A stretch of DNA of 64,000 nt from Candidatus Omnitrophota bacterium (lineage in GTDB: Bacteria; Omnitrophota; Gorgyraeia; JAHIPI01). Numbering within the stretch: position 1 is the first letter of the stretch; the number at the start of each line of letters is the position of its first letter. The notes under the pieces are model-generated. The model was not told the origin of the DNA, did no database searches, and worked only from the letters and a program-made list of their open reading frames with translations. Made by a program: the position numbers and the translations under genes. The DNA is taken from positions 12,012 through 76,011 of the forward strand of contig JADHVZ010000002.1 in NCBI GenBank assembly GCA_016783745.1, given 5' to 3'. Positions 9,768-54,171 of the stretch are shown in pieces.

Positions 9768-11327
9768 TTATTGGTCCAGTTCGATTGAAAGCGGCACATT
9801 GGCGCTTGACGTAAGATCTGCGCCTTTGAAGTCATCCTTCAGGATGTTGACCGTCATAAAGATGATAAGCTCTGTTTTTTCCACATACTGTTCGGTTTTC
9901 TTAAACCACCAGTCGCCTATTCCCGGGATATCGCCTAAAAACGGGACCTTGTTTTCGTAATCCACGTTATTTTCCTTGATAAGCCCGCCTATCATAAGGG
10001 TATCGCCGTCCCGCACCATGACCTGGGTCGCCGCCTGGCGCACCGAATACCTGGGAGCCGTTATGCCCCTCGCCGCATCAAGCACATCATACCCAAGAAG
10101 GTCTGATACCTCCGGTATCAGGTCAACTACGATGTCTCCCACATCATTGATGTGGGGAACGACAAAAAGTTTTATGCCAAGTTCCTTTTCCGTATATCCT
10201 GTTATCTCAATGGTGCCGGTATCAGGGTTACGCTCAAAGGTAGGGATGGCTATTATTATTCCTACAAGTATCGTGGCCGGTTTATTATTCAGTGTGGTAA
10301 CGCGCGGATTGGATACGATCTCGGTGTTCCTTCTGGATTTTAGATATTCCAGCACCGCCGCGAATTGAGAAAAATCAAGGGTTCCCATGGTAAAACTGCC
10401 TGTGGTCGCAAGAGGCATAGAGCTCATTGAAGTGGAGTGGAAGTCATCCGAAGGTACAGTACTCTGGTTTTCGAGTCCGCCGGTCTCAGCCCCCTTTCCT
10501 ATCGGTAAAAAATCACCCAACTCAAACTTTCCCAAGAGCCTCGAACCGGCCGTCTCAAAGGGGAATACCCATGGCCTGCTCGCGCCGGTTGCAGTGATCT
10601 TCGCATTCCAGTCAATACCAAGCTTCTCATCGCCGTCCAATGTGGTCTCTATGATCTTCGAGGAAATCAGGACCTGTTGCGTCTTCGCGTCCAGCTTGCC
10701 TATTACCCGCCTTATCTTGTAAAGGTTAGTCGGAATGTCAGTGACGATCAAGACATTCGTCCTCTCGTCGAATTTTATTTTATCTTTGCCGCGGTCGGTC
10801 AACATCTCTTTTATCGATTCCGCGACCTCCGCAGACTTAGCGTAATTAAGGGTGAACACCTCGGTAGTAAGCTCTTCCTGCTGGAGATTTTCGAGCGTAG
10901 TCACTCTTATGATGTTCTCATTTTTTTCATAAGCATAGCCGTAATTTTTGCAAATGATCTCAAGCGCTGTCTCCCAGTTTACGTTGCTTAATCTTATCGT
11001 TACAAATCCCTCAACGTCTCTTCCGGCTACAATATTGACACCGCTTTTTTCCGCCAGTACCCTCAATACTGTTTTTATGTCCGCGTCCTTAAAGTCTATG
11101 GTGATATTACCGGGCGCTATCTTCTTGGCAACCAATTTTTTTTCGGATGATGCCGCATCCTCAACCGGCGTGATGACTTTAGCGTCCTCTTCTGGGATGG
11201 GATCGCTGTCTTGAGGAACTTCTTCTTCAGCGTGACACGGGGCGCTGTCCATGTAAAAAAACGACATGGCCATAAATGAAAGAAATAAAACTATGACACC
11301 GGATAATAACATTTTCCCGCTTCTCAA
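9768..11327 (-). CDS. pilQ: Type IV pilus secretin PilQ
   Basis: 519 aa. It has a signal peptide and N0/secretin domains, including the secretin signature VSNPRVTTLNNKPATILVG. Confidence 0.85.
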   Translation of the reverse strand: MRSGKMLLSGVIVLFLSFMAMSFFYMDSAPCHAEEEVPQDSDPIPEEDAKVITPVEDAASSEKKLVAKKIAPGNITIDFKDADIKTVLRVLAEKSGVNIVAGRDVEGFVTIRLSNVNWETALEIICKNYGYAYEKNENIIRVTTLENLQQEELTTEVFTLNYAKSAEVAESIKEMLTDRGKDKIKFDERTNVLIVTDIPTNLYKIRRVIGKLDAKTQQVLISSKIIETTLDGDEKLGIDWNAKITATGASRPWVFPFETAGSRLLGKFELGDFLPIGKGAETGGLENQSTVPSDDFHSTSMSSMPLATTGSFTMGTLDFSQFAAVLEYLKSRRNTEIVSNPRVTTLNNKPATILVGIIIAIPTFERNPDTGTIEITGYTEKELGIKLFVVPHINDVGDIVVDLIPEVSDLLGYDVLDAARGITAPRYSVRQAATQVMVRDGDTLMIGGLIKENNVDYENKVPFLGDIPGIGDWWFKKTEQYVEKTELIIFMTVNILKDDFKGADLTSSANVPLSIELDQ

Positions 11328-11713
11328 TTTATTCCTCCTTCCACCTCAAGATCTATGGTATGAGTCTCCCCGTGGATCTTAAGCGTAATAGCTTTTTCCA
11401 TAATTTTAATGATCTCGACATTATTGATCTTATCGCCCTCGCCCACTATCTCGCTGTTTAAAACCGCGACAGAGTTTCCGTAGGGGTCAAATATCACCCC
11501 TTCAAACTTAACGTCTTCCACGCTCTCTATACCGTCAATGCCCAGTGATAATCTTTTCTGTCCGGTTACCAGCGGCATAAAAGGGTCTCTCCTGTCGCCT
11601 ATCTTATAAACAAAAACCTCTTCGCCGGAGGGCTGTGTGTTTCCTGCCGGCAGTGACGCGGTTATAAAAAAAATGATAAATAAGACCGGAAATCTTCCGC
11701 GCATTCTACTCAC
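11324..11713 (-). CDS. pilP: Pilus assembly protein PilP (lipoprotein-like)
   Basis: 129 aa. It carries the conserved RDPF motif typical of PilP. Its position is between pilO and pilQ. Confidence 0.6.
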   Translation of the reverse strand: MSRMRGRFPVLFIIFFITASLPAGNTQPSGEEVFVYKIGDRRDPFMPLVTGQKRLSLGIDGIESVEDVKFEGVIFDPYGNSVAVLNSEIVGEGDKINNVEIIKIMEKAITLKIHGETHTIDLEVEGGIN

Positions 11714-12302
11714 CTTTCAAGATGAATGTTTTTACAACAAGCTGCACATTGTGACGTTTAGGATTCAGCGGGTTAGCAGCTATCTCTATATCCGATACTT
11801 CCATAAACCTCTTACCGCTTTCCAGCGCCGCGATAAAGGTGCCGAGCTGATGGTAGCCGCACAGAGCTTTTATAAGGATCCTTTGCTGGCTATAGATATC
11901 GGACGAATTCATATCAGCCTCATCCAGTTCTTCTTTTACGGGTATTATCTCAGTGATCTTGACTCCGGTGTCCATGGCCATCTCAGAGAGACGCTCAAGC
12001 ACCTCAGGGAATTCCTCCTCTTTGGGCAGTTTATTAAGGTAAAAATCCGCCTTCGCCTTAAGTTCGCCTACCTCTTTTTTTATAACAGGCATTCTGTCGA
12101 TAGAAAGCTCGGCCTTGGCTATCCGGCTCTCTGTTCTGGATACCTCGCGAAACGCGGAAAGGAATTTCGCTACTATCGGAGAAATAAAAAATAGATAATA
12201 GCCGGCAAGCGCCAGAAGGCATATTATAAGGGCTATGGCCATGATCTCACGCTTCTTTGCCTTCTTCAAAAAACTCAATGGATCAAAATTTATCTTCTTC
12301 AT
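11706..12302 (-). CDS. pilO: Pilus assembly protein PilO
   Basis: 198-aa bitopic protein with a single N-terminal TM segment and a coiled-coil. Its position is between pilN and pilP. Confidence 0.6.
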   Translation of the reverse strand: MKKINFDPLSFLKKAKKREIMAIALIICLLALAGYYLFFISPIVAKFLSAFREVSRTESRIAKAELSIDRMPVIKKEVGELKAKADFYLNKLPKEEEFPEVLERLSEMAMDTGVKITEIIPVKEELDEADMNSSDIYSQQRILIKALCGYHQLGTFIAALESGKRFMEVSDIEIAANPLNPKRHNVQLVVKTFILKGE

Positions 12303-12310
12303 AGCGCCTT

Positions 12311-12943
12311 CTATTTAAAATAGCAGATCAGCTCAAAATCCATAATTTCGATATCTTTTAAGCGCGATCGCTGTATGGAGGTAGCCTCGACTTCTTCATA
12401 GTCTGCAAAAAAAGACTTGTTATTCTTAAGGCTTTTAATAAACTTACCTATAGCGGCGGTCTCTTCGCCGCCTTTTGCGATAACGCTGCCGTTAATATGC
12501 AGCGTTTTGATTATTTTTTTTCTGGTGATCGTCTGTGGCTGCTGGTCCTCACTGCCCGAACGCTTAAGCTCCATTCTTTCCAGCAGCGTCTCCTGCTCAA
12601 GCCATAATCTATTAAGCCAGACTCCGGGGGTCATGACATCGCTCAGGTCGCTTAACTTCTTCGCCCAGCTCATCCTGCCTTGGATCAGGCTGTCAATAGC
12701 ATCTATCTTTACCCTCTTAGTGGTAAGCTCGTCTGTGAGTTCATCGGCGATTTTTTTTTCCGGCTGAAGCGCTTGCCACTTATCCTCCAGCTCAGCAAGG
12801 CTCTTCTCTTTCATATTCGTGGAAAATCCGAGGATAATATGCACCAGAACAACTATAATAACAAGCGGGAGAAATGATATATTCGGAAGCTCGACCTTTT
12901 TTACTCTTAATTCTTTAGGAAGCAGGTTTATTTTAATCATCAT
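12311..12943 (-). CDS. pilN: Pilus assembly protein PilN
   Basis: 210 aa. It starts MMIKINLLPKE (the PilN INLLP signature) followed by a TM helix. Confidence 0.75.
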   Translation of the reverse strand: MMIKINLLPKELRVKKVELPNISFLPLVIIVVLVHIILGFSTNMKEKSLAELEDKWQALQPEKKIADELTDELTTKRVKIDAIDSLIQGRMSWAKKLSDLSDVMTPGVWLNRLWLEQETLLERMELKRSGSEDQQPQTITRKKIIKTLHINGSVIAKGGEETAAIGKFIKSLKNNKSFFADYEEVEATSIQRSRLKDIEIMDFELICYFK

Positions 12944-12947
12944 AGGT

Positions 12948-14015
12948 TCACCTCAAGGCCAGTCCTATCGCCACGCCCAGCTGATCCTTTATCCTGGAAA
13001 GCAATTCCTTGTCAATGGCAGGGTCTATTTCCATGCCGGCGATCGGGTCCCATTGAGCGACTTCTATGTCAAGGGTTTCCTTGAACAGGCCCGATACCTC
13101 ATTTATCCTGGCCCCTCCTCCGGTCAGAAACGCGCTCTCTATTCCCTTGCCCGATTGATTTTCATAGTAACTAAAGGAAAGCCTCACCTCATCGATAATA
13201 TTATGTAAAATAGCCTTCATTTTTTCATCGACCTTATCTGAGCGGGCGCCGGGATTTAATTTCATGTCCTCTGCTGCGGCCAGATCTACGGACATGGCTT
13301 CTGAAATTGATTTAGTAATATCGTTTCCTCCGAGCTGAATGACTCTGGAAAAATAGAGGATCCCCTCATCAAGTATATTAATATCAGTTGCCGTTGCCCC
13401 GATGTCGATTAAAGCGGAAGCTCCGGCCTTATCCCTATCCGCGCTATTGAGAAAGGCATTGACATTCGCGAACGAGGCGATGTCCAGCATTCCTATGGAT
13501 AATCCCGCTTCAGCGATCATCTTTGCCCGCTCATATACAGCGGCTTTTTTCGCGGCTGCAAGCAAGACACGCATCTTATTTTCGGTGCCTATACGCGGCT
13601 GTAGAAGCTGATGATCAATAAAAACCTCATCAATTGTAAAGGGTAGATATTTTTCAGCTTCAAACGGGATAGCGTTTTTAAGCTCTTCAGGTGTCATGTG
13701 CGGTAATTCTATAAATCTGACTACTACTGACGGGCCTGAGAGTGCGGTATTGACTTCTTTGCCCGTGATCTTCGTTTTAAAGATCACTTCCTTTAACGCG
13801 CTAAGCCGGTTGTCGTTGTAGGGCGCGGATATCTTCTTATAAAAAAGATTTTTTATCTTCAGGCCGTCCCGCTCTTTTGAGAGTTCGACATATTTTATCG
13901 CTTGCGAACCTATGTCCAGCCCTATTTGACTTACTTCGGCTTTTGGCCCGAAAAGTTCTATTTTCCCGAATTTTTTTAGGATATTATTCATCATGTAGTG
14001 AATGCCCCCCGACAT
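12948..14015 (-). CDS. pilM: Type IV pilus assembly ATPase-fold protein PilM
   Basis: 355-aa actin-like (FtsA/MreB fold) protein. It lies directly upstream of pilN. Confidence 0.85.
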   Translation of the reverse strand: MSGGIHYMMNNILKKFGKIELFGPKAEVSQIGLDIGSQAIKYVELSKERDGLKIKNLFYKKISAPYNDNRLSALKEVIFKTKITGKEVNTALSGPSVVVRFIELPHMTPEELKNAIPFEAEKYLPFTIDEVFIDHQLLQPRIGTENKMRVLLAAAKKAAVYERAKMIAEAGLSIGMLDIASFANVNAFLNSADRDKAGASALIDIGATATDINILDEGILYFSRVIQLGGNDITKSISEAMSVDLAAAEDMKLNPGARSDKVDEKMKAILHNIIDEVRLSFSYYENQSGKGIESAFLTGGGARINEVSGLFKETLDIEVAQWDPIAGMEIDPAIDKELLSRIKDQLGVAIGLALR

Positions 14016-14337: not shown

Positions 14338-14432
14338 ATTATATAAATACGATTAGTTCCTAATTAAAAAATATATCTTTAGTTAAAGGTACCATATAAC
14401 AATGGATAAGTCAAGAGAAGGCGGGATAAAAA

Positions 14433-14476
14433 CGAAAAATAAAAAAAGGCGATGGAAAAATACCAAATCCATCGCC
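14433..14476 (-). terminator. Rho-independent terminator downstream of the pilin gene at 14512-14853
   Basis: A perfect 9-bp inverted repeat (ggcgatgga at 14448-14456 and tccatcgcc at 14468-14476) has an 11-nt loop. On the plus strand an A-run at 14433-14447 precedes it, which gives a U-run after the hairpin on the minus-strand RNA. Confidence 0.7.
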
Positions 14477-14511
14477 TTTTCATTTACAAGGTCCGCTATT
14501 ACCTTAAAATA

Positions 14512-14853
14512 TTAATAGCCGGCCGGTAAAGCGCCGTGCTGGCTGCATGAAGGAGCGGTATTGACGTCATTTATCGTATAAGTACCGCTAGCAGGACAGT
14601 TTGGGTACCCGCCGCGCACATAATCACCAACGTTAGCCGTAGATGGAGTTGGTGTGCCGGACTGCCTTGTTTCAAGCGCCCACTGCTGCTTACCTGAATC
14701 GATCTGCCTCATATTATTGAAACATGCATTTTGCTGGGCCGTTGTTCTGGCTCTTACAAAATTAGGTATAGCTATAACCGCCAATAGACCTATAATTGCT
14801 ACAACTATCATGATTTCGACAAGCGTAAAGCCCTTTTTGTTAAGCCTTCTCAT
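14512..14853 (-). CDS. Type IV pilin (PilA-like), the likely major pilin
   Basis: 113 aa. The N-terminus MRRLNKKGFTLVEIMIVVAIIGLLAVIAIPNF is a prepilin signal. Alone among the three pilins it has its own upstream intergenic region, a sigma70-like promoter and a strong terminator. The C-terminus carries CPASGTYTI…SC. Confidence 0.8.
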   Translation of the reverse strand: MRRLNKKGFTLVEIMIVVAIIGLLAVIAIPNFVRARTTAQQNACFNNMRQIDSGKQQWALETRQSGTPTPSTANVGDYVRGGYPNCPASGTYTINDVNTAPSCSQHGALPAGY

Positions 14854-14930
14854 GTTAATCCCTCCTCTCGTGCCAATTTGGCAACTGTACAGTTAGAGAA
14901 CACCGTCACCCCTTAGGTAGGAGGTATTTT

Positions 14931-14960
14931 ATTATAATCTACCCCTGGCAATGACTTCAA
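14931..14960 (-). promoter_or_regulatory. Candidate sigma70-type promoter for the pilin gene at 14512-14853
   Basis: On the minus strand, TTGAAG (plus 14955-14960), an 18-nt spacer and TATAAT (plus 14931-14936) sit about 70 nt upstream of the pilin start codon. Confidence 0.35.
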
Positions 14961-15081
14961 GCATACCCTCTAATCTTGTACTCAACGTAGTATATCATAC
15001 CGTTGAACAAAAGTCAATATGTCAACAATAAAATTACTGTATCTTTATTGCTTACAAAGAGATACGTGAATAGCAAAATTT

Positions 15082-15405
15082 TTAAAATTCACCGTGCTCG
15101 CTGCAGGAGGGAGGTGTATCTATATTGTTTATCGTGTATGTACCTCTGCCGGGACATGCAGGAAACCCTCCACGAATATATGTGCCTACCTCACCCTCGC
15201 TGGGTGAATCAGATCCTGTCTTATTATCGAGGATCCCCCAATTCTGTTTCGCGTAATGTATCTGTCTCATACTGTTGATGCACGAACTCTGCTGGGCCGT
15301 GTTCCTGGATCTTACAAAATGAGGCACAGCAATAACGGATAAGAGGCCGATAATAGCGACTACGATCATTATTTCGACGAGAGTAAAACCTGCCCTGTAT
15401 TTCAA
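15082..15405 (-). CDS. Type IV pilin paralogue
   Basis: 107 aa. The N-terminus MKYRAGFTLVEIMIVVAIIGLLSVIAVPHF is a prepilin signal, and the C-terminus carries CPGRGTYTI…SC. It lies 19 nt downstream of pilC. Confidence 0.8.
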   Translation of the reverse strand: MKYRAGFTLVEIMIVVAIIGLLSVIAVPHFVRSRNTAQQSSCINSMRQIHYAKQNWGILDNKTGSDSPSEGEVGTYIRGGFPACPGRGTYTINNIDTPPSCSEHGEF

Positions 15406-15424: not shown

Positions 15425-16636
15425 TTACATCGTGATAATAGTCGATATTTTAAAGATCGGCAAAAACATGCAAATAACGATAGTACCTATGATCACTCCT
15501 AAAAAAGCGATGATTACGGGCTCTATTATGCTCGTCAACCCGCTTATGGCGGTATCTACCTCCGCGTCATAGAAATCAGCTATTTTAGAAAGCATCTTCT
15601 CGAGTTGACCGGTCTGCTCGCCAACATTTATCATCCTGACTACCATGGGAGGAAATACAGCGCTTTTCGAAAGAGGTTCGGCTATATTTTCTCCGTTTTT
15701 TATGCTTGCTCTTACGTTAGAAACGGCGCGCTCTATCACTTTATTGCCGGCTGTCTTGCCTACTATCTCAAGCGAGTTTAAGATCGGCACACCGCTTTTT
15801 ACCAGAGTGGAGAGTGTTCTTGTAAACTTACTGACAGCTACTTTTCTAAGTAATATACCTATTATAGGCATATTCAGTGTGAGTTTGTCGAATCGTAGAG
15901 CCCCTCTCTCTGTCTTTTTATACCGGGATATGAGTATCATAAAGACTGCCATTCCGGAAATGGTAAAAATGAAATACCTCCTTAAAAAATCGCTCACAGA
16001 TATAAGTACCTGGGTAGGCATGGGAAGCGCTGCGCCGAATCCTGCGAATATCTCCTTAAAAACAGGGATGACTTTTAAAAGTAAGATAGCCGTTATAACC
16101 ATCGCCATACCGGTGATGATGGCCGGATAGATCAGGGCCGACTTGACCTTCTTCTGGAGGATGCTCGTTTTTTCAAGGTATGTCGCCAGCCTGTCAAGGA
16201 TCTCATCAAGCATGCCGCTTGATTCACCGGCCCTTACCATATTCACAAATAAGCCGGAGAATACCTTCGGCTGCCTTGAAAGCGCCTCTGACAGACTGGA
16301 GCCGGTTTCAACATCATCCCTGATCCGGAGAATAGCGACTGAGAACCTTTTATTATCTAACTGCTCTCCTAATATATCGAGCGCGCTGACCAGAGGTATG
16401 CCCGCGTCAACCATTGTAGCCATCTGCCTGGAAAATATGACAATATCATCAAGCCCTATTTTTTTCTGGAAAAATGAGGATCCGCCCCCTGCCGATTCCT
16501 TGCTTTTCGTTAAGGAGACAATGACCAGGTTCTTTTCGCGCAATTTTTTTATGAGGGCGGGCCTGTCCGGGGCATCCAGCGCCCCGGTCACGGTCTTGCC
16601 GTCCTCACTCTTAGCCACATATTTGAATGTTGCCAC
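15425..16636 (-). CDS. pilC: Type IV pilus inner-membrane platform protein PilC (GspF family)
   Basis: 403 aa with two GspF repeats and three TM segments, in the conserved position downstream of pilB. Confidence 0.9.
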   Translation of the reverse strand: MATFKYVAKSEDGKTVTGALDAPDRPALIKKLREKNLVIVSLTKSKESAGGGSSFFQKKIGLDDIVIFSRQMATMVDAGIPLVSALDILGEQLDNKRFSVAILRIRDDVETGSSLSEALSRQPKVFSGLFVNMVRAGESSGMLDEILDRLATYLEKTSILQKKVKSALIYPAIITGMAMVITAILLLKVIPVFKEIFAGFGAALPMPTQVLISVSDFLRRYFIFTISGMAVFMILISRYKKTERGALRFDKLTLNMPIIGILLRKVAVSKFTRTLSTLVKSGVPILNSLEIVGKTAGNKVIERAVSNVRASIKNGENIAEPLSKSAVFPPMVVRMINVGEQTGQLEKMLSKIADFYDAEVDTAISGLTSIIEPVIIAFLGVIIGTIVICMFLPIFKISTIITM

Positions 16637-16640: not shown

Positions 16641-18362
16641 CTACCCCCCCGTAGTTATCCTCAATACCTCCTCTAATGTAGTATTGCCGTCTAAAAATTT
16701 TCTCAACGCGTTTTGCCTTAAAGTCTTCATCCCCTGTTTCATCGCGTATGCTTTTATCTGATCAGATGGCACGCGCCTTATCACCATATCCCTTATCGTG
16801 TCGTCTATGTTCAGTACCTCAAGTGTCCCCATGCGGCCGCAGTATCCTGTGTCGTCGCAGCGCTGGCAGCCTTTACCGGCAAAAAAATCCTTCGCGCCGG
16901 CATTTTCCAGCTCCGAACTGCCTATTCCCATTCTATCGAAAACTGATTTTGGAATGTCTACTTTTTTCTTGCAATCCGGGCATATCTTACGGCATAACCT
17001 TTGCGCGGCGACCAGGATAAGGCTTGAGGCTATCAAAAAAGGTTCTACTCCCATGTCTACCAATCTTGTGATCGAGCCGACCGCGTCATTTGTATGCAGT
17101 GTGCTCAATACCAGCTCGCCGGTCAAGGATGCCTTTATAGCTATATCGGCAGTCTCAAAATCACGTATTTCGCCTACCATTATTATGTCAGGGCTCTGCC
17201 TTAGGAGTCCGCGTAAGCCGTTGGCGAAAGTCAGGCCTATATCAGGATTGGCCTGGATCTGAGTAATTCCCTCGACCTGATATTCGACAGGATCCTCTAT
17301 CGTTATAATGTTTTTGGCAGCCGTATTAAGAGAGTTCAGGATAGAATACAGAGTCGTTGATTTTCCGCTGCCGGTCGGCCCGGTAAGCAGAATCATCCCG
17401 TAAGGCTTTTTGATGGCCTGGTTAAAAAGCTCAAGATTATCTTTTAAAAAACCGAGCTTTTCGAGGCCGACTCCTAAATTGGCTTTATCAAGTGCCCTCA
17501 AAACGACTTTACTGCCGTACGCGATGGGTAAGACGGAGACTCTGAAATCGATCTCCTTGCCCTCCAGCCTTATCTTGAATCTTCCGTCCTGCGGCAGCCT
17601 GGACTCAGTTATGTCAAGATTTGACATTATTTTTAATCTTGCCAGTATGGCATTCTGATTTCGCTTTGGCATGACCAGGGCTTCCTGAAGCGCGCCGTCG
17701 ATCCTGTATCTTATCCTTAGCTCTTTCTCGCAAGGCTCGATGTGGATATCGCTTGCTCTTTTTTTCAGGGCCTCGACCAGTATCAGGTCGACCATTTTGA
17801 CGATAGGGGCTTTTTTGCTCTCCTCGGTAAGCTGCGTGACATCGATTTCTTCTTCCTCGACTACCTCAATATCCTCTTCGCCTCCCCCATCTTCAGCCTC
17901 CTTGACAAGCTCTGCCATTTCGCTATGGCCGCCGTAATAACCTGCTATAGCTTCCTTTATATCCTGTTCTGTGGCTATCACAGGGTCTATTCTATATTTG
18001 GTCAGCATCCCTACGTCATCGATCGCGAATATATTCAGCGGGTCAGCCATCGCCAGAGTCAACGTCTTTCCGATCGCGGAGACTGGCAGGACATTATACT
18101 GCCTGGCAGTCCTCTCCGGAACTATTTTTAATACGTCGGGGGCTATCTTGTATTTGGAAAGGTTGATCGGCGGGATATTCAACTCCTGGCTCAACAGCAC
18201 CATAAGGTCTTTCTGAGAAATAAGGCCCTGCAGTATCAGTATCTCGCTTATGCTGCACTTTCTCTTTTTTTGTTCTTTGATGGCAAGATCAAGCTGCTCT
18301 TTTGTGATATATTTATTTGTCAAAAGCAGCTCCACAAATTTGTCCCTGAGTGATTTTTTCAT
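16641..18362 (-). CDS. pilB: Type IV pilus assembly ATPase PilB (GspE family), copy 1
   Basis: The ORF track extends it to 18416, but the start is better placed at MKKSLRDKF (the ATG at 18362 overlaps the upstream TGA as ATGA). It has an N-terminal MshEN-like domain, Walker A GPTGSGKST and a tetracysteine CxxC…CxxC motif. Confidence 0.9.
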   Translation of the reverse strand: MKKSLRDKFVELLLTNKYITKEQLDLAIKEQKKRKCSISEILILQGLISQKDLMVLLSQELNIPPINLSKYKIAPDVLKIVPERTARQYNVLPVSAIGKTLTLAMADPLNIFAIDDVGMLTKYRIDPVIATEQDIKEAIAGYYGGHSEMAELVKEAEDGGGEEDIEVVEEEEIDVTQLTEESKKAPIVKMVDLILVEALKKRASDIHIEPCEKELRIRYRIDGALQEALVMPKRNQNAILARLKIMSNLDITESRLPQDGRFKIRLEGKEIDFRVSVLPIAYGSKVVLRALDKANLGVGLEKLGFLKDNLELFNQAIKKPYGMILLTGPTGSGKSTTLYSILNSLNTAAKNIITIEDPVEYQVEGITQIQANPDIGLTFANGLRGLLRQSPDIIMVGEIRDFETADIAIKASLTGELVLSTLHTNDAVGSITRLVDMGVEPFLIASSLILVAAQRLCRKICPDCKKKVDIPKSVFDRMGIGSSELENAGAKDFFAGKGCQRCDDTGYCGRMGTLEVLNIDDTIRDMVIRRVPSDQIKAYAMKQGMKTLRQNALRKFLDGNTTLEEVLRITTGG

Positions 18363-20101
18363 CAAACTGCCCCTATGTCCTGGTCTCCGACAGTAAGCCG
18401 CACGACCTCTTCCCATGTCGTTATCCCGCCAAGCGCTTTCTTCAGCCCGTTCTGCCTGAGGGTCGTCATGCCTTCTTTTCTCGCGGCTTTCTTTATTTCA
18501 TGTTCCTGGGCCATACCAGCTATCAACTCCTTTATCTTAGGCGTTAACACAAGTGTCTCCGCTATTCCGATCCTGCCCTTATATCCGGTTTGAAAGCAGT
18601 GCTTACAGCCTCTTCCCCTGAAGAGCGTCACTTTATCTTTGCTTATATCCATACTCACATCCTTGAAGGCCGACTTGCTTACCTCATATTCCTCTTTACA
18701 GCTCGGGCATATCTTTCTTGCCAGCCGTTGCGCGGCAACTAAAAATATAGAGGATGTGATTAAAAACGGCTCTATCCCCATATTTACCAATCGCACCACT
18801 GAACCGGCAGCGGTAGTAGTATGCAGTGTGCTTAACACTAAGTGTCCGGTCAGCGCCGACTTAATAGCTATATCAGCGGTATCATAATCTCTTATCTCAC
18901 CCACCATTATTACATCGGGGTCCTGCCTCAAAATACTGCGCAAGGCCCCGGCAAAGGTAAGGCCGATACCCGGCTTTATTGTCACCTGGTTTATTCCGCG
19001 CAGGTCATATTCTATGGGGTCTTCGACCGTCACTAAATTCTTATCAGGAGTATCTATAGTCTTAAGGATCGAATACAATGTCGTCGTTTTTCCGCAGCCG
19101 GTCGGACCGCACACCACTATCATCCCGTGCGGCCTCTTAGATTCCCTTTTTATATCCTCCAGGGGCTTGTCTTCAAAACCCAATTTATCCAGATCGAGCA
19201 TGGCCTGGTCTTTATCAAGGACTCTCAGCGCGGCTTTTTCTCCGATACTCGAAGGTAAAACCGATATTCGGAAATCGACCTCTCTATTATGGATCTTTAT
19301 CTTGAATCTTCCATCCTGAGGGAGCCTTCTTTCGGCTATCTTCAGGTCGGACATGACCTTCAACCTCGATACTATTGCTTCATGCATAAAACGGGGAGGG
19401 CTCTTAGCCTCTCTTAATACCCCGTCTATCCTGTAGCGGATTCTTAGCTTATTCTCCATTGGCTCTATCAGTATATCGCTGGCTTTGACCCTTACGCCGT
19501 CGGACAGAATGAGGTTAGTCACCTTGACAATAGGCGTCTCTTGCGTCATCCGGATGAGATCGGTAGTAGCAAGGCTGTCTTTGCGCTCGTGCTCCACCAC
19601 CATCTCCACTTTATCATCGGCCTGCGCCATACCGGCCATTATCTCTTCAATGGCCTCGTGGGCGGCTTCACCGTAGTACTGGTCTATCGCCGACTGGATG
19701 TCTTTATCTGTTGTTATCAATACGCCTATCTGAAAACCGGTCAATGCCTTTATCTCATCTATGGCGAAGACATTGAGGGGATCGGCCATTGCCACTGTCA
19801 ATGTATTGCCTATCTTAGAAATAGGTATGATCTGGAAGTGTTGGGCGGTTTTGCGCGGTATTAATTTTGCGACGGTCGGATCTATCCTATACCTCGCGAG
19901 ATTTATAGGAGGGACTCCCAGTTCTTCAGAGAGAACGACCATCAGGTCTTTTTTGTCGACAAAGCCCTTTTCGGATAAAATATCGCTAAGCTTACCGCCT
20001 TTTCCCCTCTGAATCTTTAGGGCTTCATCGAGTTTTTCCGGAGTGATAAGGCCCTTTTCAAGCAATATCTTATTTATACGCGCTTTTAGCGGTAAGGCCA
20101 T
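18362..20101 (-). CDS. Second PilB/GspE-family secretion ATPase (PilB paralogue, MshE-like)
   Basis: 579 aa. The N-terminus carries an MshEN-type motif, RINKILLEKGLITPEKLDEALKIQ. It also has Walker A GPTGCGKTT and a tetracysteine motif. Confidence 0.9.
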   Translation of the reverse strand: MALPLKARINKILLEKGLITPEKLDEALKIQRGKGGKLSDILSEKGFVDKKDLMVVLSEELGVPPINLARYRIDPTVAKLIPRKTAQHFQIIPISKIGNTLTVAMADPLNVFAIDEIKALTGFQIGVLITTDKDIQSAIDQYYGEAAHEAIEEIMAGMAQADDKVEMVVEHERKDSLATTDLIRMTQETPIVKVTNLILSDGVRVKASDILIEPMENKLRIRYRIDGVLREAKSPPRFMHEAIVSRLKVMSDLKIAERRLPQDGRFKIKIHNREVDFRISVLPSSIGEKAALRVLDKDQAMLDLDKLGFEDKPLEDIKRESKRPHGMIVVCGPTGCGKTTTLYSILKTIDTPDKNLVTVEDPIEYDLRGINQVTIKPGIGLTFAGALRSILRQDPDVIMVGEIRDYDTADIAIKSALTGHLVLSTLHTTTAAGSVVRLVNMGIEPFLITSSIFLVAAQRLARKICPSCKEEYEVSKSAFKDVSMDISKDKVTLFRGRGCKHCFQTGYKGRIGIAETLVLTPKIKELIAGMAQEHEIKKAARKEGMTTLRQNGLKKALGGITTWEEVVRLTVGDQDIGAV

Positions 20102-20110
20102 ATTGTGATT

Positions 20111-20560
20111 TTATTTTTTTTCGTAGTATTGGTTTAAGGCGTTGTTTATATCAGTCATAGTACTTACGAAGGCCTGGACCTTACAGCCTGACATAAGCTC
20201 TATATCCTCGACTGCCTGCAAATTGAGAGGATTCGCCATAGCAATAGTCATGGTATTTCCTATTTTATCTACAACGATCAGACAATACTGCCTGGCGACA
20301 TTTTCCGGTATTATCTTGATCAGGGCCGGATCCACCTCATAGCTCTGAAGCGGTAGGTATGGAAAGCCATACTGGATAGTTATGGCCTGAGCTATCTGCT
20401 CTTCAGTCACGTATCCTAATCCCACAAGTATCGTGCCTAATAGCCCGCTCTTTTGCTTCTGGATCTTTAACGCCTTGTCCAACTGGTCTTTCTTTAATAT
20501 TCCCTTTTCAAGCAGAAGCTCTCCCAGTTGCTTGGATACTACTCTTCTTATCGGCGACAT
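20111..20560 (-). CDS. Standalone GspE-N / MshEN-domain protein, a putative c-di-GMP receptor
   Basis: 149 aa with no ATPase domain. It contains two tandem 24-residue segments, QLGELLLEKGILKKDQLDKALKIQ and LLGTILVGLGYVTEEQIAQAITIQ. Both fit the MshEN c-di-GMP-binding motif (R)LGxxLLxxGxIxxxxLxxALxxQ. Confidence 0.75.
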   Translation of the reverse strand: MSPIRRVVSKQLGELLLEKGILKKDQLDKALKIQKQKSGLLGTILVGLGYVTEEQIAQAITIQYGFPYLPLQSYEVDPALIKIIPENVARQYCLIVVDKIGNTMTIAMANPLNLQAVEDIELMSGCKVQAFVSTMTDINNALNQYYEKK

Positions 20561-20573
20561 ATTTACCTATTCC

Positions 20574-21644
20574 TTAAAGGCTTCCCTTTGCGTATTTCGC
20601 GAGCTCGCTCGGATCTGAAGACCGCGCGAAAGCGTCATCGTATGAAATAATGCCTTTTTTATAAAGCGTGGCAAGCGCCTGGTTCATCGTGCGCATGCCT
20701 TCCCTTTGCCCTGTCTGTATCTGAGAATATATCTGATGGACTTTAGATTCTCTTATCAGCGCCCTCACTGCGGGATTGGCGATAAGGATCTCATTCACCA
20801 GCACCCTGCCCGGCGGCGTTTTTTTGGGCACCAGAAGCTGCGCTATTATTCCTACTAACACAAAAGATAACTGCGTCCTTATCTGCTGCTGCTGATGTGA
20901 CGGAAACACATCTATGATCCTGTTTACGGTCTGCACGCTATCTGATGTATGCAGAGTAGCTAACACGAGGTGGCCTGTCTCCGCGATTATAAGCGCGGCC
21001 GCTATAGTCTCAAGGTCCCGCATTTCCCCTATGAGTATGACATCCGGATCCTGCCTCAAAACGTACTTAAGCGCCGCGCCAAAGGTATGGGTATCGTGAT
21101 GGACCTCTCTCTGGTCTATTATAGCTTTTTTATTTTTAAAAACAAATTCTATCGGGTCTTCGATGGTTATGATATGGCATTCCCGCTCATCATTGATAAA
21201 ATCGACCATTGCCGATAAGGTCGTGGATTTTCCTGTTCCGGTTGCCCCTGTTATCAGCACCAGCCCCTTAGGTTTACGGCATAACGCCTGCATTACGCCC
21301 ATGGGAAGGCCCGCTTCCTCAAAACCCATTACCTCAAACGGGATAAGCCTGATGGCTATGCCCACGTTTCCCCGCTGAAGGAATACATTGACTCTGAACC
21401 TGCAAAGGTGGCTTATCTCAAAAGAAAAATCGAGCTCTTTTTCCTTTTCGAATATCGCGATCTGTTCTTCTGTTAACATCCCGTAAGCTATTTTTTTCGT
21501 TTCTTCGGGCGTAAGTACCTTCTCGTCCGCGTTAACCAGCTTTTCATCGATCCTCATCTTCGGAGGATAGTTGGCGCCAATATGAAGGTCGGATGAATTT
21601 TTCTCTAACAGTTGCTTTAGGATGACGTTTATATCGATCGACAT
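20574..21644 (-). CDS. pilT: Twitching-motility retraction ATPase PilT
   Basis: 356 aa with Walker A GATGTGKST, the PilT AIRNLIRE-like motif (ALIRESKVHQI) and a short N-domain. Confidence 0.9.
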   Translation of the reverse strand: MSIDINVILKQLLEKNSSDLHIGANYPPKMRIDEKLVNADEKVLTPEETKKIAYGMLTEEQIAIFEKEKELDFSFEISHLCRFRVNVFLQRGNVGIAIRLIPFEVMGFEEAGLPMGVMQALCRKPKGLVLITGATGTGKSTTLSAMVDFINDERECHIITIEDPIEFVFKNKKAIIDQREVHHDTHTFGAALKYVLRQDPDVILIGEMRDLETIAAALIIAETGHLVLATLHTSDSVQTVNRIIDVFPSHQQQQIRTQLSFVLVGIIAQLLVPKKTPPGRVLVNEILIANPAVRALIRESKVHQIYSQIQTGQREGMRTMNQALATLYKKGIISYDDAFARSSDPSELAKYAKGSL

Positions 21645-21662
21645 TTCAGCTCCTGTCCTTTG

Positions 21663-23072
21663 TCAAATGATCTTATTTTTGCCCTGCGTTTTCGCGGCGG
21701 CAACCGAATCCGCGGCTTTCTTCTTGAGTGATTCCGAAGAAGAACCGTCTATGGGATTCTCGCTGACCCCGCCGCTTATTGTCAGGCGCCTTCCTGATCC
21801 GCTACCCAGTTCAATATTTTCAACAGTTTTTCTTACGGCCTCGGCTATTCTATAAGCCTCTTTTTTATTCTTCTCCGGAAGTAATAAAGCGAATTCATCT
21901 CCGGAAAGCCGCGCTGCCCTGCCTATTTGAGTGACATGCTCTTCTAGCACGGAGGCTATCATCTTAAGCGCCTTCTCCGTCACGAGCTCGCCGTTATCAC
22001 TTCTGAACTTATCGAATCCGTCGACATTAAACATGACATACGAACAAGGCCTCTGATAAAGGACACCTCTTTTGATCTCCTCACCAAGCCTTAAGGTGAC
22101 ATAGGCCTCGTTGTATAAGCCGGTGAGATCATCCTTTATGGCCAACTCCCTGGCCTTTCTGATAAGTATCTCTCTGTCATAAGCTATAGCGGCTTGTTTA
22201 GAGAAGATCTTCAGCACATCCATATCGTCGGAATTAAATGTATAGTCACTTTCCCTGCTTCCCGCGAGCATCATCCCGACCGCCTTACCGCGCGATATGA
22301 TGGGAAATGCGGCGAAGTTTTCAACGCCAACGTCTTCCATGAACATTTCCGTATCCTTCGAGCGCTTAGTGCCGGAATCGGCATATACAATAGCGCCTTT
22401 TAATAAAGCTTCCCCGAGTAAGTCTTTCCCGGGACGTATTTTGAGATCGCGAAGCTTTTCGTTTGTAAGATTATTCTCTACGGCCGATTCCAGGGTCCCG
22501 GCTTCGATAGGCCTCGGTAAATAGATCACCGCGTAACCCGCGTTCATAATCTCGACGGTCTTATCGGCTATAAGAGCCATAACGCCATCAAGGTCAGACG
22601 CCATGGAAATTTCTTCGCTTATTTGCAGCAAGCTGGATAAGGCAAGGACTTTTTTATGGATCTCTATATTTATCAATTTCGTCTTTTCCCCATACGAGTT
22701 AAGCTCATCCATGTCCCGCCTGATACGTGATGTCAGGCTGTTGATCGAACTCCCAAGCTCGCCTATCTCGTCTTCGGAAGATACGGAGATTCTGCGGTCG
22801 AACATCCCTCCGGCTATAAGTTTTGATTCTATCGCCATATCGATGACCGGCATTATAAGCTGCCGCGCCAGCACAAGGCCTAACAGAGCCAAGATGACAC
22901 TAAAGAAAAGGATCCACGATGTCTCTATTATATCTCCTGTGGGGGGAAATATCTTATCCCGGAGGAGGTAGGCTGCTACAAGCAAAGGTATCATTGCCAT
23001 AAGGCAAAAAGCAACCGTAAATTTGCGGCGTATCCCTTTTGGCGCCAGGGATAATTTTTTGAGAAGATCCAT
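21663..23072 (-). CDS. Membrane-anchored HAMP-GAF-GGDEF protein, a putative diguanylate cyclase with an SGDEF active-site variant
   Basis: 469 aa. An N-terminal TM pair is followed by a HAMP-like linker, a GAF domain and a C-terminal GGDEF domain (…DGFDKFRSDNGE…RLSGDEFALLLP). Confidence 0.85.
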   Translation of the reverse strand: MDLLKKLSLAPKGIRRKFTVAFCLMAMIPLLVAAYLLRDKIFPPTGDIIETSWILFFSVILALLGLVLARQLIMPVIDMAIESKLIAGGMFDRRISVSSEDEIGELGSSINSLTSRIRRDMDELNSYGEKTKLINIEIHKKVLALSSLLQISEEISMASDLDGVMALIADKTVEIMNAGYAVIYLPRPIEAGTLESAVENNLTNEKLRDLKIRPGKDLLGEALLKGAIVYADSGTKRSKDTEMFMEDVGVENFAAFPIISRGKAVGMMLAGSRESDYTFNSDDMDVLKIFSKQAAIAYDREILIRKARELAIKDDLTGLYNEAYVTLRLGEEIKRGVLYQRPCSYVMFNVDGFDKFRSDNGELVTEKALKMIASVLEEHVTQIGRAARLSGDEFALLLPEKNKKEAYRIAEAVRKTVENIELGSGSGRRLTISGGVSENPIDGSSSESLKKKAADSVAAAKTQGKNKII

Positions 23073-23179
23073 AAATGACTCCCCTATAATTATTGTACTT
23101 TTTTTACAGAAAAAGTATACATTATTACACGCTAATTGTCAATATAGCATGCCGATTATAATAATTACAATGCGCGGCG

Positions 23180-24277
23180 CTAAAAAACCGATCTGTGCAT
23201 ATCTACATTGATCACAAGTGCCAGAGATAACCATGTAGTTATAAGGCTTGACCCCCCATAGCTGATGAGAGGCAGGGGCAGTCCTACGACCGGCATAAAA
23301 CCGGCAGCCATTGCGATGTTGACTATGACCTGGAAGGATATCATCGCGGCTACGCCTGAGACGATAAGCCTGCCGTAAATATCGTTTGACCTGCTCGCGA
23401 CAGATAATATGCGGATTATAAGCAGACAGAAAAGCAGTATCACCAAAAAACTGCCCGCAAAGCCCCATTCCTCTCCTACTACGGAAAATATAAAATCAGT
23501 ATGGCGTTCCGGTAAAAAATTCAGCTGATTCTGAGTCCCGCTTGTCCACCCTTTTCCGAACAACCCTCCTGAGCCGATAGCGATCTTTGACTGGATCACA
23601 GTGTAACCTGCCCCCAGAGGATCCATATTGGGATTCATAAATACAAGCAGTCTTCTTTTTTGATAATCCTTTAAGAAATTCCAGAAAAGTGGTGACGCTA
23701 TGAGACCCGCCAATATCGTCCCAATAATAAACCTCATTGGCGTCTCCGAGCACAGCAAGATGGCAAATAGTATGGGCAGGAGCGCTATGGCGCTGCCAAG
23801 ATCCGGCTCCTTGAATATGAGCAGGCAGAAAAGGCCTGTTATGCCTAATGCCGCAAGAAATGTGCGTATGTCTCTTATGGAATGACGGTTATTGCCTAGA
23901 AAATATGACAATGTCAATATCATGGCGAGTTTAGCAAACTCGGATGGCTGGAATGTCAGCCATCCGAAGCTCAGCCATCTGCGCGCGCCCATCCTTGATC
24001 CACCGATAAAAAGTATCAGGATAAGCGCTAAAGCGATCAAGACGTAAAAAAGGTAAGACCAGTCAAGTATGCGGCGAAAATCTATATTGATGATGACGAC
24101 AAGCATCACAATGCTGACCGCCAGCCACGCAACCTGCCTGAACATGAAGTTGATCCCCTTTATCTCCCCCATGCCGCGTGAGGCGCTATAAAGAAAAAGA
24201 AGGCCTATTCCGAATATAAGTAACGGCAATATGATCAGAAAAGGGTCGAAGCCTCGTTTATAACTTATATTGTACAT
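23180..24277 (-). CDS. rodA: Rod shape-determining protein RodA (SEDS family)
   Basis: 365-aa polytopic FtsW/RodA/SpoVE protein. It lies immediately downstream of mrdA in the mreBCD-mrdA-rodA cluster. Confidence 0.9.
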   Translation of the reverse strand: MYNISYKRGFDPFLIILPLLIFGIGLLFLYSASRGMGEIKGINFMFRQVAWLAVSIVMLVVIINIDFRRILDWSYLFYVLIALALILILFIGGSRMGARRWLSFGWLTFQPSEFAKLAMILTLSYFLGNNRHSIRDIRTFLAALGITGLFCLLIFKEPDLGSAIALLPILFAILLCSETPMRFIIGTILAGLIASPLFWNFLKDYQKRRLLVFMNPNMDPLGAGYTVIQSKIAIGSGGLFGKGWTSGTQNQLNFLPERHTDFIFSVVGEEWGFAGSFLVILLFCLLIIRILSVASRSNDIYGRLIVSGVAAMISFQVIVNIAMAAGFMPVVGLPLPLISYGGSSLITTWLSLALVINVDMHRSVF

Positions 24278-24278
24278 C

Positions 24279-25997
24279 CTACAGGTAGTCCAGTTCTTTT
24301 AACTTTTTGAAAATTTTAGCGGCGATCTTGCAGGGTTTATCCCCGCCACTTCCGCCATACTCTAAAAAGACTACTAACGATATTTTGGGCCTTCCTGCCG
24401 GTGAGTAACCCGCAAACCAGGCGTGAGTGCCGGCCGGCCCGGCCTGAGCTGTCCCGGTCTTTCCGGCTATCTCTATGCCGGGAACACCGGCATGTTTTGC
24501 TGTCCCTTGATCATCCTCTACAGCCCGCCTGGTTCCTTCTTTTATCACATTAAAAGTCCCGCCTGAGATATTGAGCCAGCTCTTATGGGAACCGGATACA
24601 TCGATATCGCCTATTTTTTTTACAATAAACGGACTGATCATCTGGCCTTCAAGGGCAAGCGCGTTTATCATCCTGGCTATCTGGATCGGCGTTACCAGAA
24701 GATAGCCCTGGCCTATGGCATAATTTACGGTATCGCCCTCGTACCACTTTTCCATTTTTTCGCGCTTTTTCCATGACCTGCCCGGCACGATTCCTTCTGA
24801 CTCATACGGAAGGTCTATCCCGGATTTGCTTCCGAATCCATAAAGTGCGGCGAAATGCTCTATTTTATCTACGCCTGTCTTCCTGCCGGCCTTATAAAAA
24901 AATACGTTACATGAGTTCTTTATGCCTTCCGCCATAGTCTGCAGTTTATGGCCTGATTTTTTCCAGCAGCTGAATGTTCTGTAGCCGAGCGCATAAGAGC
25001 CTTTACAATCCAGTTGCTCATCATGTTTTATACTTCCGGAATCAAGCGCGGCCGAAGCAGTTACTATCTTAAAAACGGAACCCGGGGGATATGTGCCGGA
25101 AATGGCTCTGTTGACCAGAGGATAATCACTTCTCCCGAGCAGATCCGTCACCTTGCGGTAGCCGGATGATGAAACAAATATATTAGGATTAAAATCCGGT
25201 TTACTTACAAGCCCGATCACTTCCCCGTCCTCGGCATCCATGACCACTACAGCGCCATTATGTTCTTCCAGCAGTGAATCTATAAACGCCTCAAGCTCGA
25301 TATCTATGGTAGTAGTAATATCCCTTCCCTTACTTGGCTCCCTTATGCCGAGCACCCTTAATTCCCTGCCTTTTGCGTCGACCTCTATCTGCATGCCGCC
25401 GCTTTCACCTTTAAGATAATCGTCGTAATAAAATTCGATGCCGCCTCTTCCTACAAGATCCATCGGCTTGTATCCGTACTCCCTCAAGACATCGAGTTCC
25501 TCCTCGGATATTTTGCCCACGTACCCTGCTATATGCCCGGCTACATTGGAATTCGGATAATGCCTTGTAGGATAGGTCTGTATGATGAGCCCGGGGAAAT
25601 CCACGCTTCTCTCAGAGATCGATATAGCGGTTTCTTTGCCTATATCTTTCTTGATAATAAGGGGAATGAATGGCGCGACAAAGTCTTCTTTCAGCTTTTT
25701 CTTTAAATCCGCCTCGGACAGCTCTAACAATCCGCTTAAACGGCTTAGGCCTTTATCGTCGACATTAAACTCCTGAGGTATCACGGCGCAATCAAACGCC
25801 AGACGATTGCCGGCTAAAAGCTTACCGTTACGGTCATATATATTTCCGCGGGGCGCGATCAGCGGGAGGAGCCTTATCCTGTTTCTTTTTGATAGTTCGG
25901 AATAATGGTAACTCTGCAGGCACTGGATGTAAAATAGGCATATGACCAACGCGATGAAGAAAAACACGATCATAATTTTCATAATGCGTATCCTCAT
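24279..25997 (-). CDS. mrdA: Penicillin-binding protein 2 (elongasome transpeptidase)
   Basis: 572 aa. It has a PBP dimerisation domain and a transpeptidase domain with SxxK (STFK-like), SxN and KTG motifs. Confidence 0.9.
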   Translation of the reverse strand: MRIRIMKIMIVFFFIALVICLFYIQCLQSYHYSELSKRNRIRLLPLIAPRGNIYDRNGKLLAGNRLAFDCAVIPQEFNVDDKGLSRLSGLLELSEADLKKKLKEDFVAPFIPLIIKKDIGKETAISISERSVDFPGLIIQTYPTRHYPNSNVAGHIAGYVGKISEEELDVLREYGYKPMDLVGRGGIEFYYDDYLKGESGGMQIEVDAKGRELRVLGIREPSKGRDITTTIDIELEAFIDSLLEEHNGAVVVMDAEDGEVIGLVSKPDFNPNIFVSSSGYRKVTDLLGRSDYPLVNRAISGTYPPGSVFKIVTASAALDSGSIKHDEQLDCKGSYALGYRTFSCWKKSGHKLQTMAEGIKNSCNVFFYKAGRKTGVDKIEHFAALYGFGSKSGIDLPYESEGIVPGRSWKKREKMEKWYEGDTVNYAIGQGYLLVTPIQIARMINALALEGQMISPFIVKKIGDIDVSGSHKSWLNISGGTFNVIKEGTRRAVEDDQGTAKHAGVPGIEIAGKTGTAQAGPAGTHAWFAGYSPAGRPKISLVVFLEYGGSGGDKPCKIAAKIFKKLKELDYL

Positions 25998-27267: not shown

Positions 27268-27288
27268 AATGATTCGCCTTTAGATTTT

Positions 27289-40742: not shown

Positions 40743-40757
40743 TTTCTATATCTCCCC

Positions 40758-46166: not shown

Positions 46167-46179
46167 ATATCACTCATTT

Positions 46180-47526: not shown

Positions 47527-47538
47527 ATATCCTCCAGA

Positions 47539-47613
47539 GGGGGACGTGCCACTTGGGGACGTGTCATTAGGGGACGTGTCATTAGGGGACGGTCCAAAAG
47601 GGGACACACCATA
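47539..47613. repeat. Tandem array of five imperfect 15-bp repeats (consensus GGGGACGTGTCATTA) just upstream of murD
   Basis: Read directly from the sequence: ggggacgtgccactt, ggggacgtgtcatta, ggggacgtgtcatta, ggggacggtccaaaa, ggggacacaccatac. Confidence 0.8.
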
Positions 47614-47686
47614 CTAACTAAGCGATCTGCCCCCTCCTTACTCATCATCTTAAGGTTTTTCATTTTTATCATTATGGTATGTTGTA

Positions 47687-47925: not shown

Positions 47926-47934
47926 CTTATAGCC

Positions 47935-54169: not shown

Positions 54170-54171
54170 AT

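Follow-up and report, generated by a model that had tools for sequence, protein, structure and literature searches.

Can a single type IV pilus be driven by two extension ATPases, and through which protein would such a motor take in the signal of cyclic di-GMP (c-di-GMP)? These questions are raised by a pilus locus of a Candidatus Omnitrophota bacterium, found in a 64,000-nucleotide stretch of contig JADHVZ010000002.1 (assembly GCA_016783745.1, contig positions 12,012 to 76,011). The whole stretch is referred to here as the window, and its numbering is used throughout. The motor operon lies on the minus strand in the order [HAMP-GAF-GGDEF]-pilT-[stand-alone MshEN]-pilB-up-pilB-down-pilC. The products of the upstream and downstream pilB genes are denoted PilB-up and PilB-down, and the stand-alone MshEN protein of 149 residues is called the orphan.

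Pfam and NCBIfam searches bear out the coordinates, order and domains of the five genes from the GGDEF gene to pilB-down, as given in an original prediction drawn from the sequence of the window. Its description of a single type IVa pilus (T4aP) motor module, with two tightly coupled full-length PilBs, a separate MshEN-only protein, PilT and a HAMP-GAF-GGDEF membrane protein, is retained. The layout had seemed unfamiliar from characterised type IV pilus systems, and we found no description of it in the literature on Omnitrophota pilus motors, tandem PilBs or stand-alone MshEN proteins. The reading we favour, with a probability of about one half, is that the two PilBs form an extension motor on one platform, and that c-di-GMP input would reach this motor in trans through the orphan acting as an adaptor.

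MshEN motifs in the orphan and in the PilBs

The orphan and both PilBs contain an MshEN domain, as had been predicted: PF05157 matches all three with 68-82 bits, and HMMER aligns them over their full length with the N-domains of MshE, PilF and Geobacter PilB. In each, two 24-residue motifs lie five residues apart (24+5+24) without indels, at residues 8-31 and 37-60 of the PilBs and 11-34 and 40-63 of the orphan. According to Wang et al., the guanine is read by the backbone amides of two residues, the glycine at motif position 3 and the one after it. Among the mutants of Vibrio cholerae MshE (VcMshE) reported by these authors, G11L shows no detectable binding, G40I binds 72-fold and Q61A 12-fold more weakly, and the effect of Arg9 stays below 5-fold; in XpsE, which does not bind, the changes include G11V and G40L. 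In the GSPII-B domain of Thermus PilF, Lys and Leu replace both arginines and c-di-GMP is bound with a dissociation constant of 6 nM, and the study proposes that high affinity can be predicted from a missing Arg; in GSPII-A of the same protein, motif II is degenerate (SLA) and no binding occurs (PMC11731258).

The two motifs of the orphan, QLGELLLEKGILKKDQLDKALKIQ (QLG...Q) and LLGTILVGLGYVTEEQIAQAITIQ (LLG...Q), depart from the consensus at position 1 alone. Across 120 clusters of orphan sequences, G13 and G42 are invariant, Q34 is kept in 118 and Q63 in all 120, and little or no variation occurs at the Leu positions. At position 1, the Leu of motif II falls within the extended consensus (R/K/L), and an invariant Lys precedes motif I; the Gln or Thr and the Leu that start the two motifs resemble K167 and L196 of Thermus GSPII-B. 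By the measure of sequence conservation both motifs are under very strong constraint, and the orphan may be expected to bind c-di-GMP. The earlier suggestion of a c-di-GMP-responsive 'clutch' is strengthened by the near invariance of both motifs.

The predicted architecture of the orphan consists of a four-helix subdomain bearing the c-di-GMP motifs and an N1-like alpha/beta subdomain. Its AlphaFold2 model has a mean per-residue confidence (pLDDT) of 83.6, and the top Foldseek match is 5HTL, an MshEN domain with c-di-GMP, with template modelling (TM) scores of 0.78/0.83. The C-terminal subdomain matches the N1 domain of EpsE (GspE) crystallised with EpsL (GspL) (2bh1_X, TMt 0.73). A recent pilB fragment or pseudogene was rejected as an origin of the orphan: it is 35-38% identical to either PilB N-domain and equally far from that of Geobacter PilB, and it is the best-conserved protein of the module. 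Its top matches in a library of 1.84 billion representatives are proteins of 1042-1325 residues with 4-7 MshEN-like stretches (P0121-P0123, P0129, P0132, P0141), which exceeds the highest repeat number given by Wang et al. 2016, that of (MshEN)4-T2SSE.

The N-domains of the PilBs keep the MshEN fold while the residues that hold c-di-GMP, as seen in the alignments, have decayed. Motif I reads RIN in PilB-up (N10) and KFV...K... in PilB-down (V10); motif II reads KLS...E and SIS...E, respectively, with S39 in both. The terminal residue in both window proteins is Gln in motif I and Glu in motif II. The motif-I glycine is absent from all 68 PilB-up orthologues, which carry T, S, M or A, and from all 65 PilB-down orthologues (I, L, V or A). 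Position 3 of motif II is occupied by Ser in 46 and Gly in 14 PilB-up orthologues, and by Gly in 40 and Ser in 16 PilB-down orthologues, and the terminal residue of this motif is Glu or Gly in PilB-up and Glu (31) or Gln (27) in PilB-down. A relaxed tandem motif, defined as positions 2-24 of the search motif of Wang et al. in two copies five residues apart, occurs in none of 69 PilB-up and none of 66 PilB-down sequences, against 96 of 120 orphan clusters and 52 of 79 loci.

The claim that the PilB segments fit the 24-residue motif thus holds for the helical, hydrophobic scaffold and for the 24+5+24 spacing, but not for the glycine at position 3 or for the terminal glutamine of motif II, and we infer that the PilBs do not bind c-di-GMP. 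The NCBIfam model of the c-di-GMP motif (NF053729, 53 positions, cutoff 38 bits) scores the orphan at 61.2 bits and PilB-down at 36.9, just under the cutoff. As putative receptors the three domains would rank as one strong candidate, one doubtful and one unlikely, accompanied by a GGDEF protein that is probably non-catalytic. The original prediction had counted four c-di-GMP-sensing or -making elements around the motor; the missing motif-I glycine and the absence of the relaxed tandem motif from the PilBs do not sustain that number.

Catalytic residues of the GGDEF protein

The GGDEF protein shows two N-terminal hydrophobic segments in its sequence, and its GGDEF domain (PF00990, 89.3 bits) aligns end to end with that of PleD. 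In the window it keeps an SGDEF signature and the metal-binding Asp; the guanine-binding residues N335 and D344 of PleD are replaced by Arg and Glu, and the alignment to PleD reveals no RxxD I-site in the domain. Among 67 orthologues the equivalent of N335 is R, H, E, C or K and never Asn, and that of D344 is Glu in 59. The xG[DE]EF signature is kept in 18 of the 67 and degenerate in the other 49 (SGDTF, ADDEF, GDDEF, DRDTF and similar). Since Asn is never found at the N335 position and so few signatures are kept, c-di-GMP synthesis is unlikely to be a role conserved across the phylum. The protein is probably not a conserved or canonical cyclase, and the part of a c-di-GMP-making element assigned to it in the prediction is not supported.

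The same organism encodes a GGDEF-AAA_16-PilZ protein of 612 residues (57106-58944, minus strand; GGDEF 142 bits) with an AGDEF signature, the canonical substrate-binding Asn and Asp, and a C-terminal PilZ domain with the RxxxR and NxSxxG motifs. On the evidence of these residues, the organism has c-di-GMP signalling. The fusion of cyclase, ATPase and receptor is an unusual architecture, and a DUF3047 gene (56400-57125) follows it.

Two ancient PilB paralogues

PilB-up and PilB-down are 50% identical. TIGR02538, the model of T4aP PilB, is the top family for both, with scores just under its equivalog cutoff of 675.65 bits (Table 1). The GspE model gives 610 bits for PilB-down and 596 for PilB-up, the TfpB model NF053534 gives 469.3 and 444.0 bits, far under its cutoff of 850, and PF00437 (T2SSE) matches the two with 453.5 and 458.6 bits. 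Their genomic context includes pilC, pilT, pilins and pilMNOPQ. By these comparisons both are T4aP PilB-type ATPases, and assignment of either to the MshE, GspE or TfpB type is ruled out by the NCBIfam scores and by the ranking of Protein Data Bank (PDB) matches. The proviso that the second ATPase might be of a non-pilus type was checked with the same family models, on which both proteins score best as PilB.

The Walker A and B motifs, the Asp box, the second histidine of the His box and the tetracysteine zinc motif CxxC...CxxC are invariant in the 68 PilB-up and 65 PilB-down orthologues. Judged by these residues, both proteins are catalytically intact, and the possibility that one of them is a pseudo-ATPase was discarded. 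The orthologues form two clean groups, with mean identities of 59-61% within and 48% between them and no nearest-neighbour mismatch among 135 sequences. In phmmer searches the paralogues score 594 bits against each other, and 584 and 562-573 bits against Geobacter PilB. Because they resemble each other about as much as they resemble Geobacter PilB, the duplication is, by sequence, ancient.

Sixteen positions are fixed within each group yet differ between the groups; the N2 and C-terminal ATPase domains account for all of them, and the N-terminal domain for none. Each paralogue has also lost a different conserved histidine. At residue 211 of PilB-up (window about 19469-19471), DILIEP replaces the canonical DIHIEP of Geobacter in 97% of orthologues. 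At residue 416 of PilB-down (window about 17115-17117), the His box reads TG(Q/E)LV against the canonical TGHLV of Geobacter; this first histidine of the box is replaced by Gln in 86% of orthologues and by Glu in the window. As to the mechanistic meaning of this exchange we can only infer: the reciprocal loss, the retention of the other catalytic residues and the fact that the pair is never separated make up the pattern expected from reciprocal subfunctionalisation inside a mixed ring. That the Omnitrophota pilus has an obligate two-paralogue, possibly heterohexameric extension motor together with a split-off, free-standing, high-affinity MshEN adaptor is a tentative proposal, and taken as a whole rather unlikely.

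Conservation across Omnitrophota

The orphan is encoded in at least 510 species genomes. The surroundings were compared in a species scan with one genome per species, in which 80 loci were retrieved and their open reading frames (ORFs) classed against the window proteins. The order orphan, pilB-up, pilB-down is found in all 62 loci that have enough downstream sequence, pilC is present in 47 of 48 related loci with room for it, the GGDEF gene lies upstream in nearly all, and pilT is located between the GGDEF gene and the orphan in 54 of 68. The spacer between the pilBs measures -4 to +6 nucleotides in about 47 of 68 loci, and for this reason the two genes are probably co-translated. Mean identity to the window proteins is highest for the orphan (65%), followed by the ATPases (59-63%), and lowest for the GGDEF protein (42%).

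A metagenome-assembled genome of Candidatus Omnitrophica encodes a hypothetical protein with exactly the sequence of the orphan. The orphan's relatives of about 149 residues and 60-89% identity number in the hundreds, and every named one belongs to Omnitrophota; remoter stand-alone relatives (40-50% identity) come from Omnitrophota or 'PVC group' bins. One subclade, comprising loci L031, L051 and L062, has an operon without pilT and a GGDEF signature of ADDEF. The same loci carry inserts between the two pilB genes (L031 9860-12235, L051 12147-14431, L062 12150-14685) encoding a CheY-like stand-alone receiver and a protein of about 550 residues with no Pfam match.

A model of the motor and its alternatives

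In the reading we favour, both PilBs would act on the same machine, like PilB and TfpB of Acinetobacter baylyi, and would form either a mixed hexamer or a pair of hexamers that differ in role. c-di-GMP would be read mainly by the orphan, the nucleotide being held in its four-helix subdomain, while the N1-like subdomain would engage or block a motor partner, which may be PilM, PilC or the N-domain of a PilB; in type II secretion, GspE docks on GspL through its N1 domain. Pilus extension might thereby be gated in trans. The GGDEF protein would more likely serve as a membrane-anchored signalling or scaffolding partner than as the c-di-GMP source, and the more canonical GGDEF protein encoded at 57106-58944 could supply the nucleotide.

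Several observations weigh against this reading. PilB-up passes the NF053729 model (52.2 bits), and on the strength of this overall similarity it may have residual c-di-GMP binding. Imperfect motifs can still bind (Wang et al.). Ser or Asn, as found at the glycine position of PilB-up, is smaller than the Leu and Ile that were tested, so that weak binding is possible. In the orphan itself, the Gln or Thr at position 1 of motif I agrees with neither the published nor the extended consensus (R/K/L). In three related loci the pilBs are parted by genes for a receiver and for an unknown protein of about 550 residues, and strict co-translation of the pair is consequently not obligatory. The platform counts cover the locus only, and a second platform may be encoded elsewhere in the genome. 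Cyclases of the SGDEF and AGDEF types are reported to be active in other bacteria; the window GGDEF protein might for this reason keep some activity.

Some of these observations are shared with the original prediction, in which c-di-GMP would act at all of the MshEN domains and the orphan would serve as a sink buffering the local pool. The common 24+5+24 register and hydrophobic Leu/Ile positions of the three N-domains agree with it, as do the NF053729 scores of the PilBs on either side of the cutoff, the binding known for imperfect motifs, and the SGDEF signature and metal-binding Asp of the window GGDEF protein. This model appears quite unlikely to us, however, as the guanine-reading glycine of motif I is missing from every PilB orthologue and none of them fits the relaxed tandem motif. 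In PilB-down, the replacement is a bulky hydrophobic residue of the same kind as in the non-binders XpsE (G11V) and the G11L mutant, and motif II of PilB-up (KLS) resembles the degenerate SLA of the non-binding Thermus GSPII-A. The GGDEF signatures degenerate in 49 of 67 species, and the constant absence of Asn at the N335 position, speak against the model as well. The orphan might also work without any nucleotide, as an unattached version of the docking domain of PilB, competing with PilB or chaperoning it at PilM or PilC; conservation of its motifs would then reflect the stability of the fold alone. The conserved hydrophobic motif residues do form the four-helix core, the C-terminal subdomain does match the GspL-docking N1 domain of GspE (2bh1_X, TMt 0.73), and small protein inhibitors or cofactors of PilB exist (CpiA, PilZ). 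The residues that are invariant in the orphan and free to vary in the PilB N-domains, however, are the ones contacting the ligand, namely both position-3 glycines and both terminal glutamines. As the PilB N-domains share the fold and yet vary at these residues, fold stability is insufficient as an explanation, and a decoy or assembly factor of this kind seems improbable.

Alternatively, the two PilBs might drive different filaments or tasks without physical cooperation, by polymerising different pilins or with one of them serving DNA uptake or secretion. The three pilin genes downstream of pilC, the system specificity that is usual for extension ATPases and the genes that separate the pilBs in three loci would all be in line with such a division. 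The locus nevertheless holds a single pilC, one pilMNOPQ set and one pilT beside the two pilBs; the pair is never split in the 62 informative loci and its spacer is usually no longer than 6 nucleotides. Both proteins are PilB-type, not GspE-, MshE- or TfpB-type. Moreover, the 16 fixed differences are all confined to the ATPase domains and spare the N-terminal docking domain, a distribution that different platforms would not predict. A division between filaments is, on balance, rather doubtful. Joint action of both PilBs on one platform, with the orphan as the main reader of c-di-GMP, remains our preferred account.

Comparison with known systems

None of the precedents that we compared combines the features of the Omnitrophota operon. 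Two extension-type ATPases also occur in Acinetobacter baylyi, where both PilB and TfpB are needed for one pilus (Ellison et al. 2021, PMC8213720); whether these two form separate hexamers or hetero-oligomers is posed as an open question in a review (PMC11656802). TfpB is as distant from PilB as GspE or MshE, whereas both Omnitrophota copies are PilB-type. Unlike the A. baylyi pair, the Omnitrophota pilBs are neighbours that usually overlap or almost touch, and the pair is conserved in the species sampled.

The orphan shares with GSPII-B of Thermus thermophilus PilF (PDB 8PDK; PMC11731258), a domain that controls twitching and adhesion, an arginine-less motif pair in which motif II begins with Leu and the remaining positions match the consensus. 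The two differ in the start of motif I, which is Lys in GSPII-B and Gln or Thr in the orphan, and in their setting: in PilF three N-terminal domains, GSPII-B among them, are fused to the ATPase, and the orphan is a separate protein. The N-domain of V. cholerae MshE (PDB 5HTL; PMC5013675), through which c-di-GMP controls pilus extension, has the same fold (TM 0.78-0.83) and the same 24+5+24 architecture. The MshE sensor acts in cis on its ATPase, whereas in Omnitrophota the copies borne on the ATPases are degenerate, and it is the free-standing copy that is intact.

A protein of the MshEN type that lacks an ATPase domain is known in PA3740 of Pseudomonas aeruginosa ('MshEN - xT2SSE_N1', Wang 2016, Supplementary Table 4), which is linked to surface motility and reported from beta- and gamma-proteobacteria; no pil-operon setting is given for it there. 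The N1 subdomain of PA3740 is highly diverged, while that of the orphan is canonical and the orphan gene always lies immediately upstream of the pilB genes; a plain stand-alone MshEN protein is not listed in the 2016 catalogue of MshEN architectures. In the FimX-PilZ-PilB circuit of Xanthomonas and Pseudomonas (PMC8389850), c-di-GMP reaches PilB in trans via proteins that bind the PilB N-domain, and the circuit includes, like the Omnitrophota operon, a degenerate GGDEF-containing protein. Its receptor, however, is a degenerate EAL domain with a PilZ adaptor, and the circuit has neither a stand-alone MshEN protein nor a second PilB.

Gene order and transcription

The pilus module extends past position 16641 on the same strand (Table 1), with pilins and pilMNOP-like/Q genes at 9768-15405 downstream of pilC. 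The genes at 9768-14015 amount to a single alignment subcomplex and a single secretin. Two of them, pilN-like and pilP-like, are named by position, as Pfam gives no match for the former and a sub-threshold T2SSB match for the latter.

Table 1. Features of the pilus locus in the window, listed in the direction of transcription
Feature	Position	Strand	Evidence
Candidate operon promoter, sigma-70-like TTGACA-17-TATACT, 11/12	23114..23142	-	Consensus match alone; in the 107-nucleotide rodA-GGDEF spacer
HAMP-GAF-GGDEF membrane-anchored protein, 469 residues, SGDEF	21663..23072	-	Pfam 31.9, 49.1, 89.3 bits
pilT, retraction ATPase, 356 residues	20574..21644	-	TIGR01420 472.9 bits (cutoff 319.1); Pfam T2SSE
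Stand-alone MshEN protein (orphan), 149 residues, no ATPase domain	20111..20560	-	PF05157 68.3 bits
pilB-up, 579 residues, MshEN + T2SSE	18362..20101	-	TIGR02538 638.2 bits
pilB-down, 573 residues, MshEN + T2SSE	16641..18362	-	TIGR02538 660.7 bits
pilC, platform protein, 403 residues, 4 nucleotides past pilB-down	15425..16636	-	Pfam T2SSF, two copies, 231.5 bits
Three type IV pilin genes, 107, 113 and 117 residues	13984..15405	-	N-terminal (G)FTL(I/V)E prepilin signatures; N_methyl matches
pilM, pilN-like, pilO, pilP-like, pilQ (secretin)	9768..14015	-	Pfam PilM_2, PilO, Secretin_N/Secretin

The spacers from the GGDEF gene to pilC measure 18, 13, 9, -1 and 4 nucleotides. At the junction of the two pilBs, ...TTTGATGAAA, the TGA stop of pilB-up (18364-18362) and the ATG of pilB-down (18362-18360) share one nucleotide (TGATG), which corrects the ATGA overlap given previously. 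Orthologues give no support to a longer pilB-down ORF starting at 18416, and gene boundaries are identical in calls on four independent metagenome contigs that carry an identical orphan protein. A sequence scan found no convincing minus-strand terminator-like site within the module. This, together with the promoter match in the rodA-GGDEF spacer, which scores highest of all sigma-70-like matches in the region, makes a single transcription unit plausible, probably transcribed from that candidate promoter. No c-di-GMP riboswitch was found in the operon or pilin leaders at the Rfam gathering threshold.

In the window, the orphan and PilB-up stand in one reading frame (20102-20113, minus strand), with TAA and AAT CAC AAT between them. 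Read-through of the stop codon to fuse the two was rejected, as the frame of the spacer is not conserved among 76 loci (-29 to +253 nucleotides); since relatives do not keep this relation, the shared frame is probably coincidental.

Upstream of the GGDEF gene lie, in the order of transcription, mreB (27289-28371), mreC, mreD, the gene for penicillin-binding protein 2 (PBP2; 24279-25997) and rodA (23180-24277). The series mreB-mreC-mreD-PBP2-rodA (window 23180-28371) recurs in most related loci with enough upstream sequence (L007-L084), where rodA and the GGDEF gene are often separated by one additional gene of about 1.7-2 kb. Such a conserved linkage of elongasome genes to a type IV pilus motor is unusual.

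Elsewhere in the window, a class A RNase P RNA is located at 59428-59829 on the minus strand (210 bits). Since the ORFs at 58966-59487 (with an ACPS-domain match) and 59814-60239 both overlap its ends, their listed starts or ends are probably wrong. Two tRNA genes, tRNA-Val (61220-61296) and tRNA-Met (63123-63199), were also found, and a long same-strand run of ORFs at 38890-55080 (minus strand) resembles by eye a dcw (cell-division/cell-wall) cluster.

Significance

Two questions of the field bear on this locus: whether extension ATPases can work as mixed assemblies, and what mechanical role the N-terminal (MshEN/N1) domain of PilB plays. The locus presents a naturally split system, with a free MshEN domain predicted to be c-di-GMP-competent, ATPase-borne copies that are apparently blind to the ligand, and two co-inherited PilBs. 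The orphan and the PilBs are small and soluble, and their expression does not depend on culture of the organism. At least 510 species-level genomes share the arrangement, in a phylum that is widespread and for the most part uncultured; it would therefore be a lineage-defining feature and not a one-off, and one that concerns how Omnitrophota cells control surface attachment or host contact.

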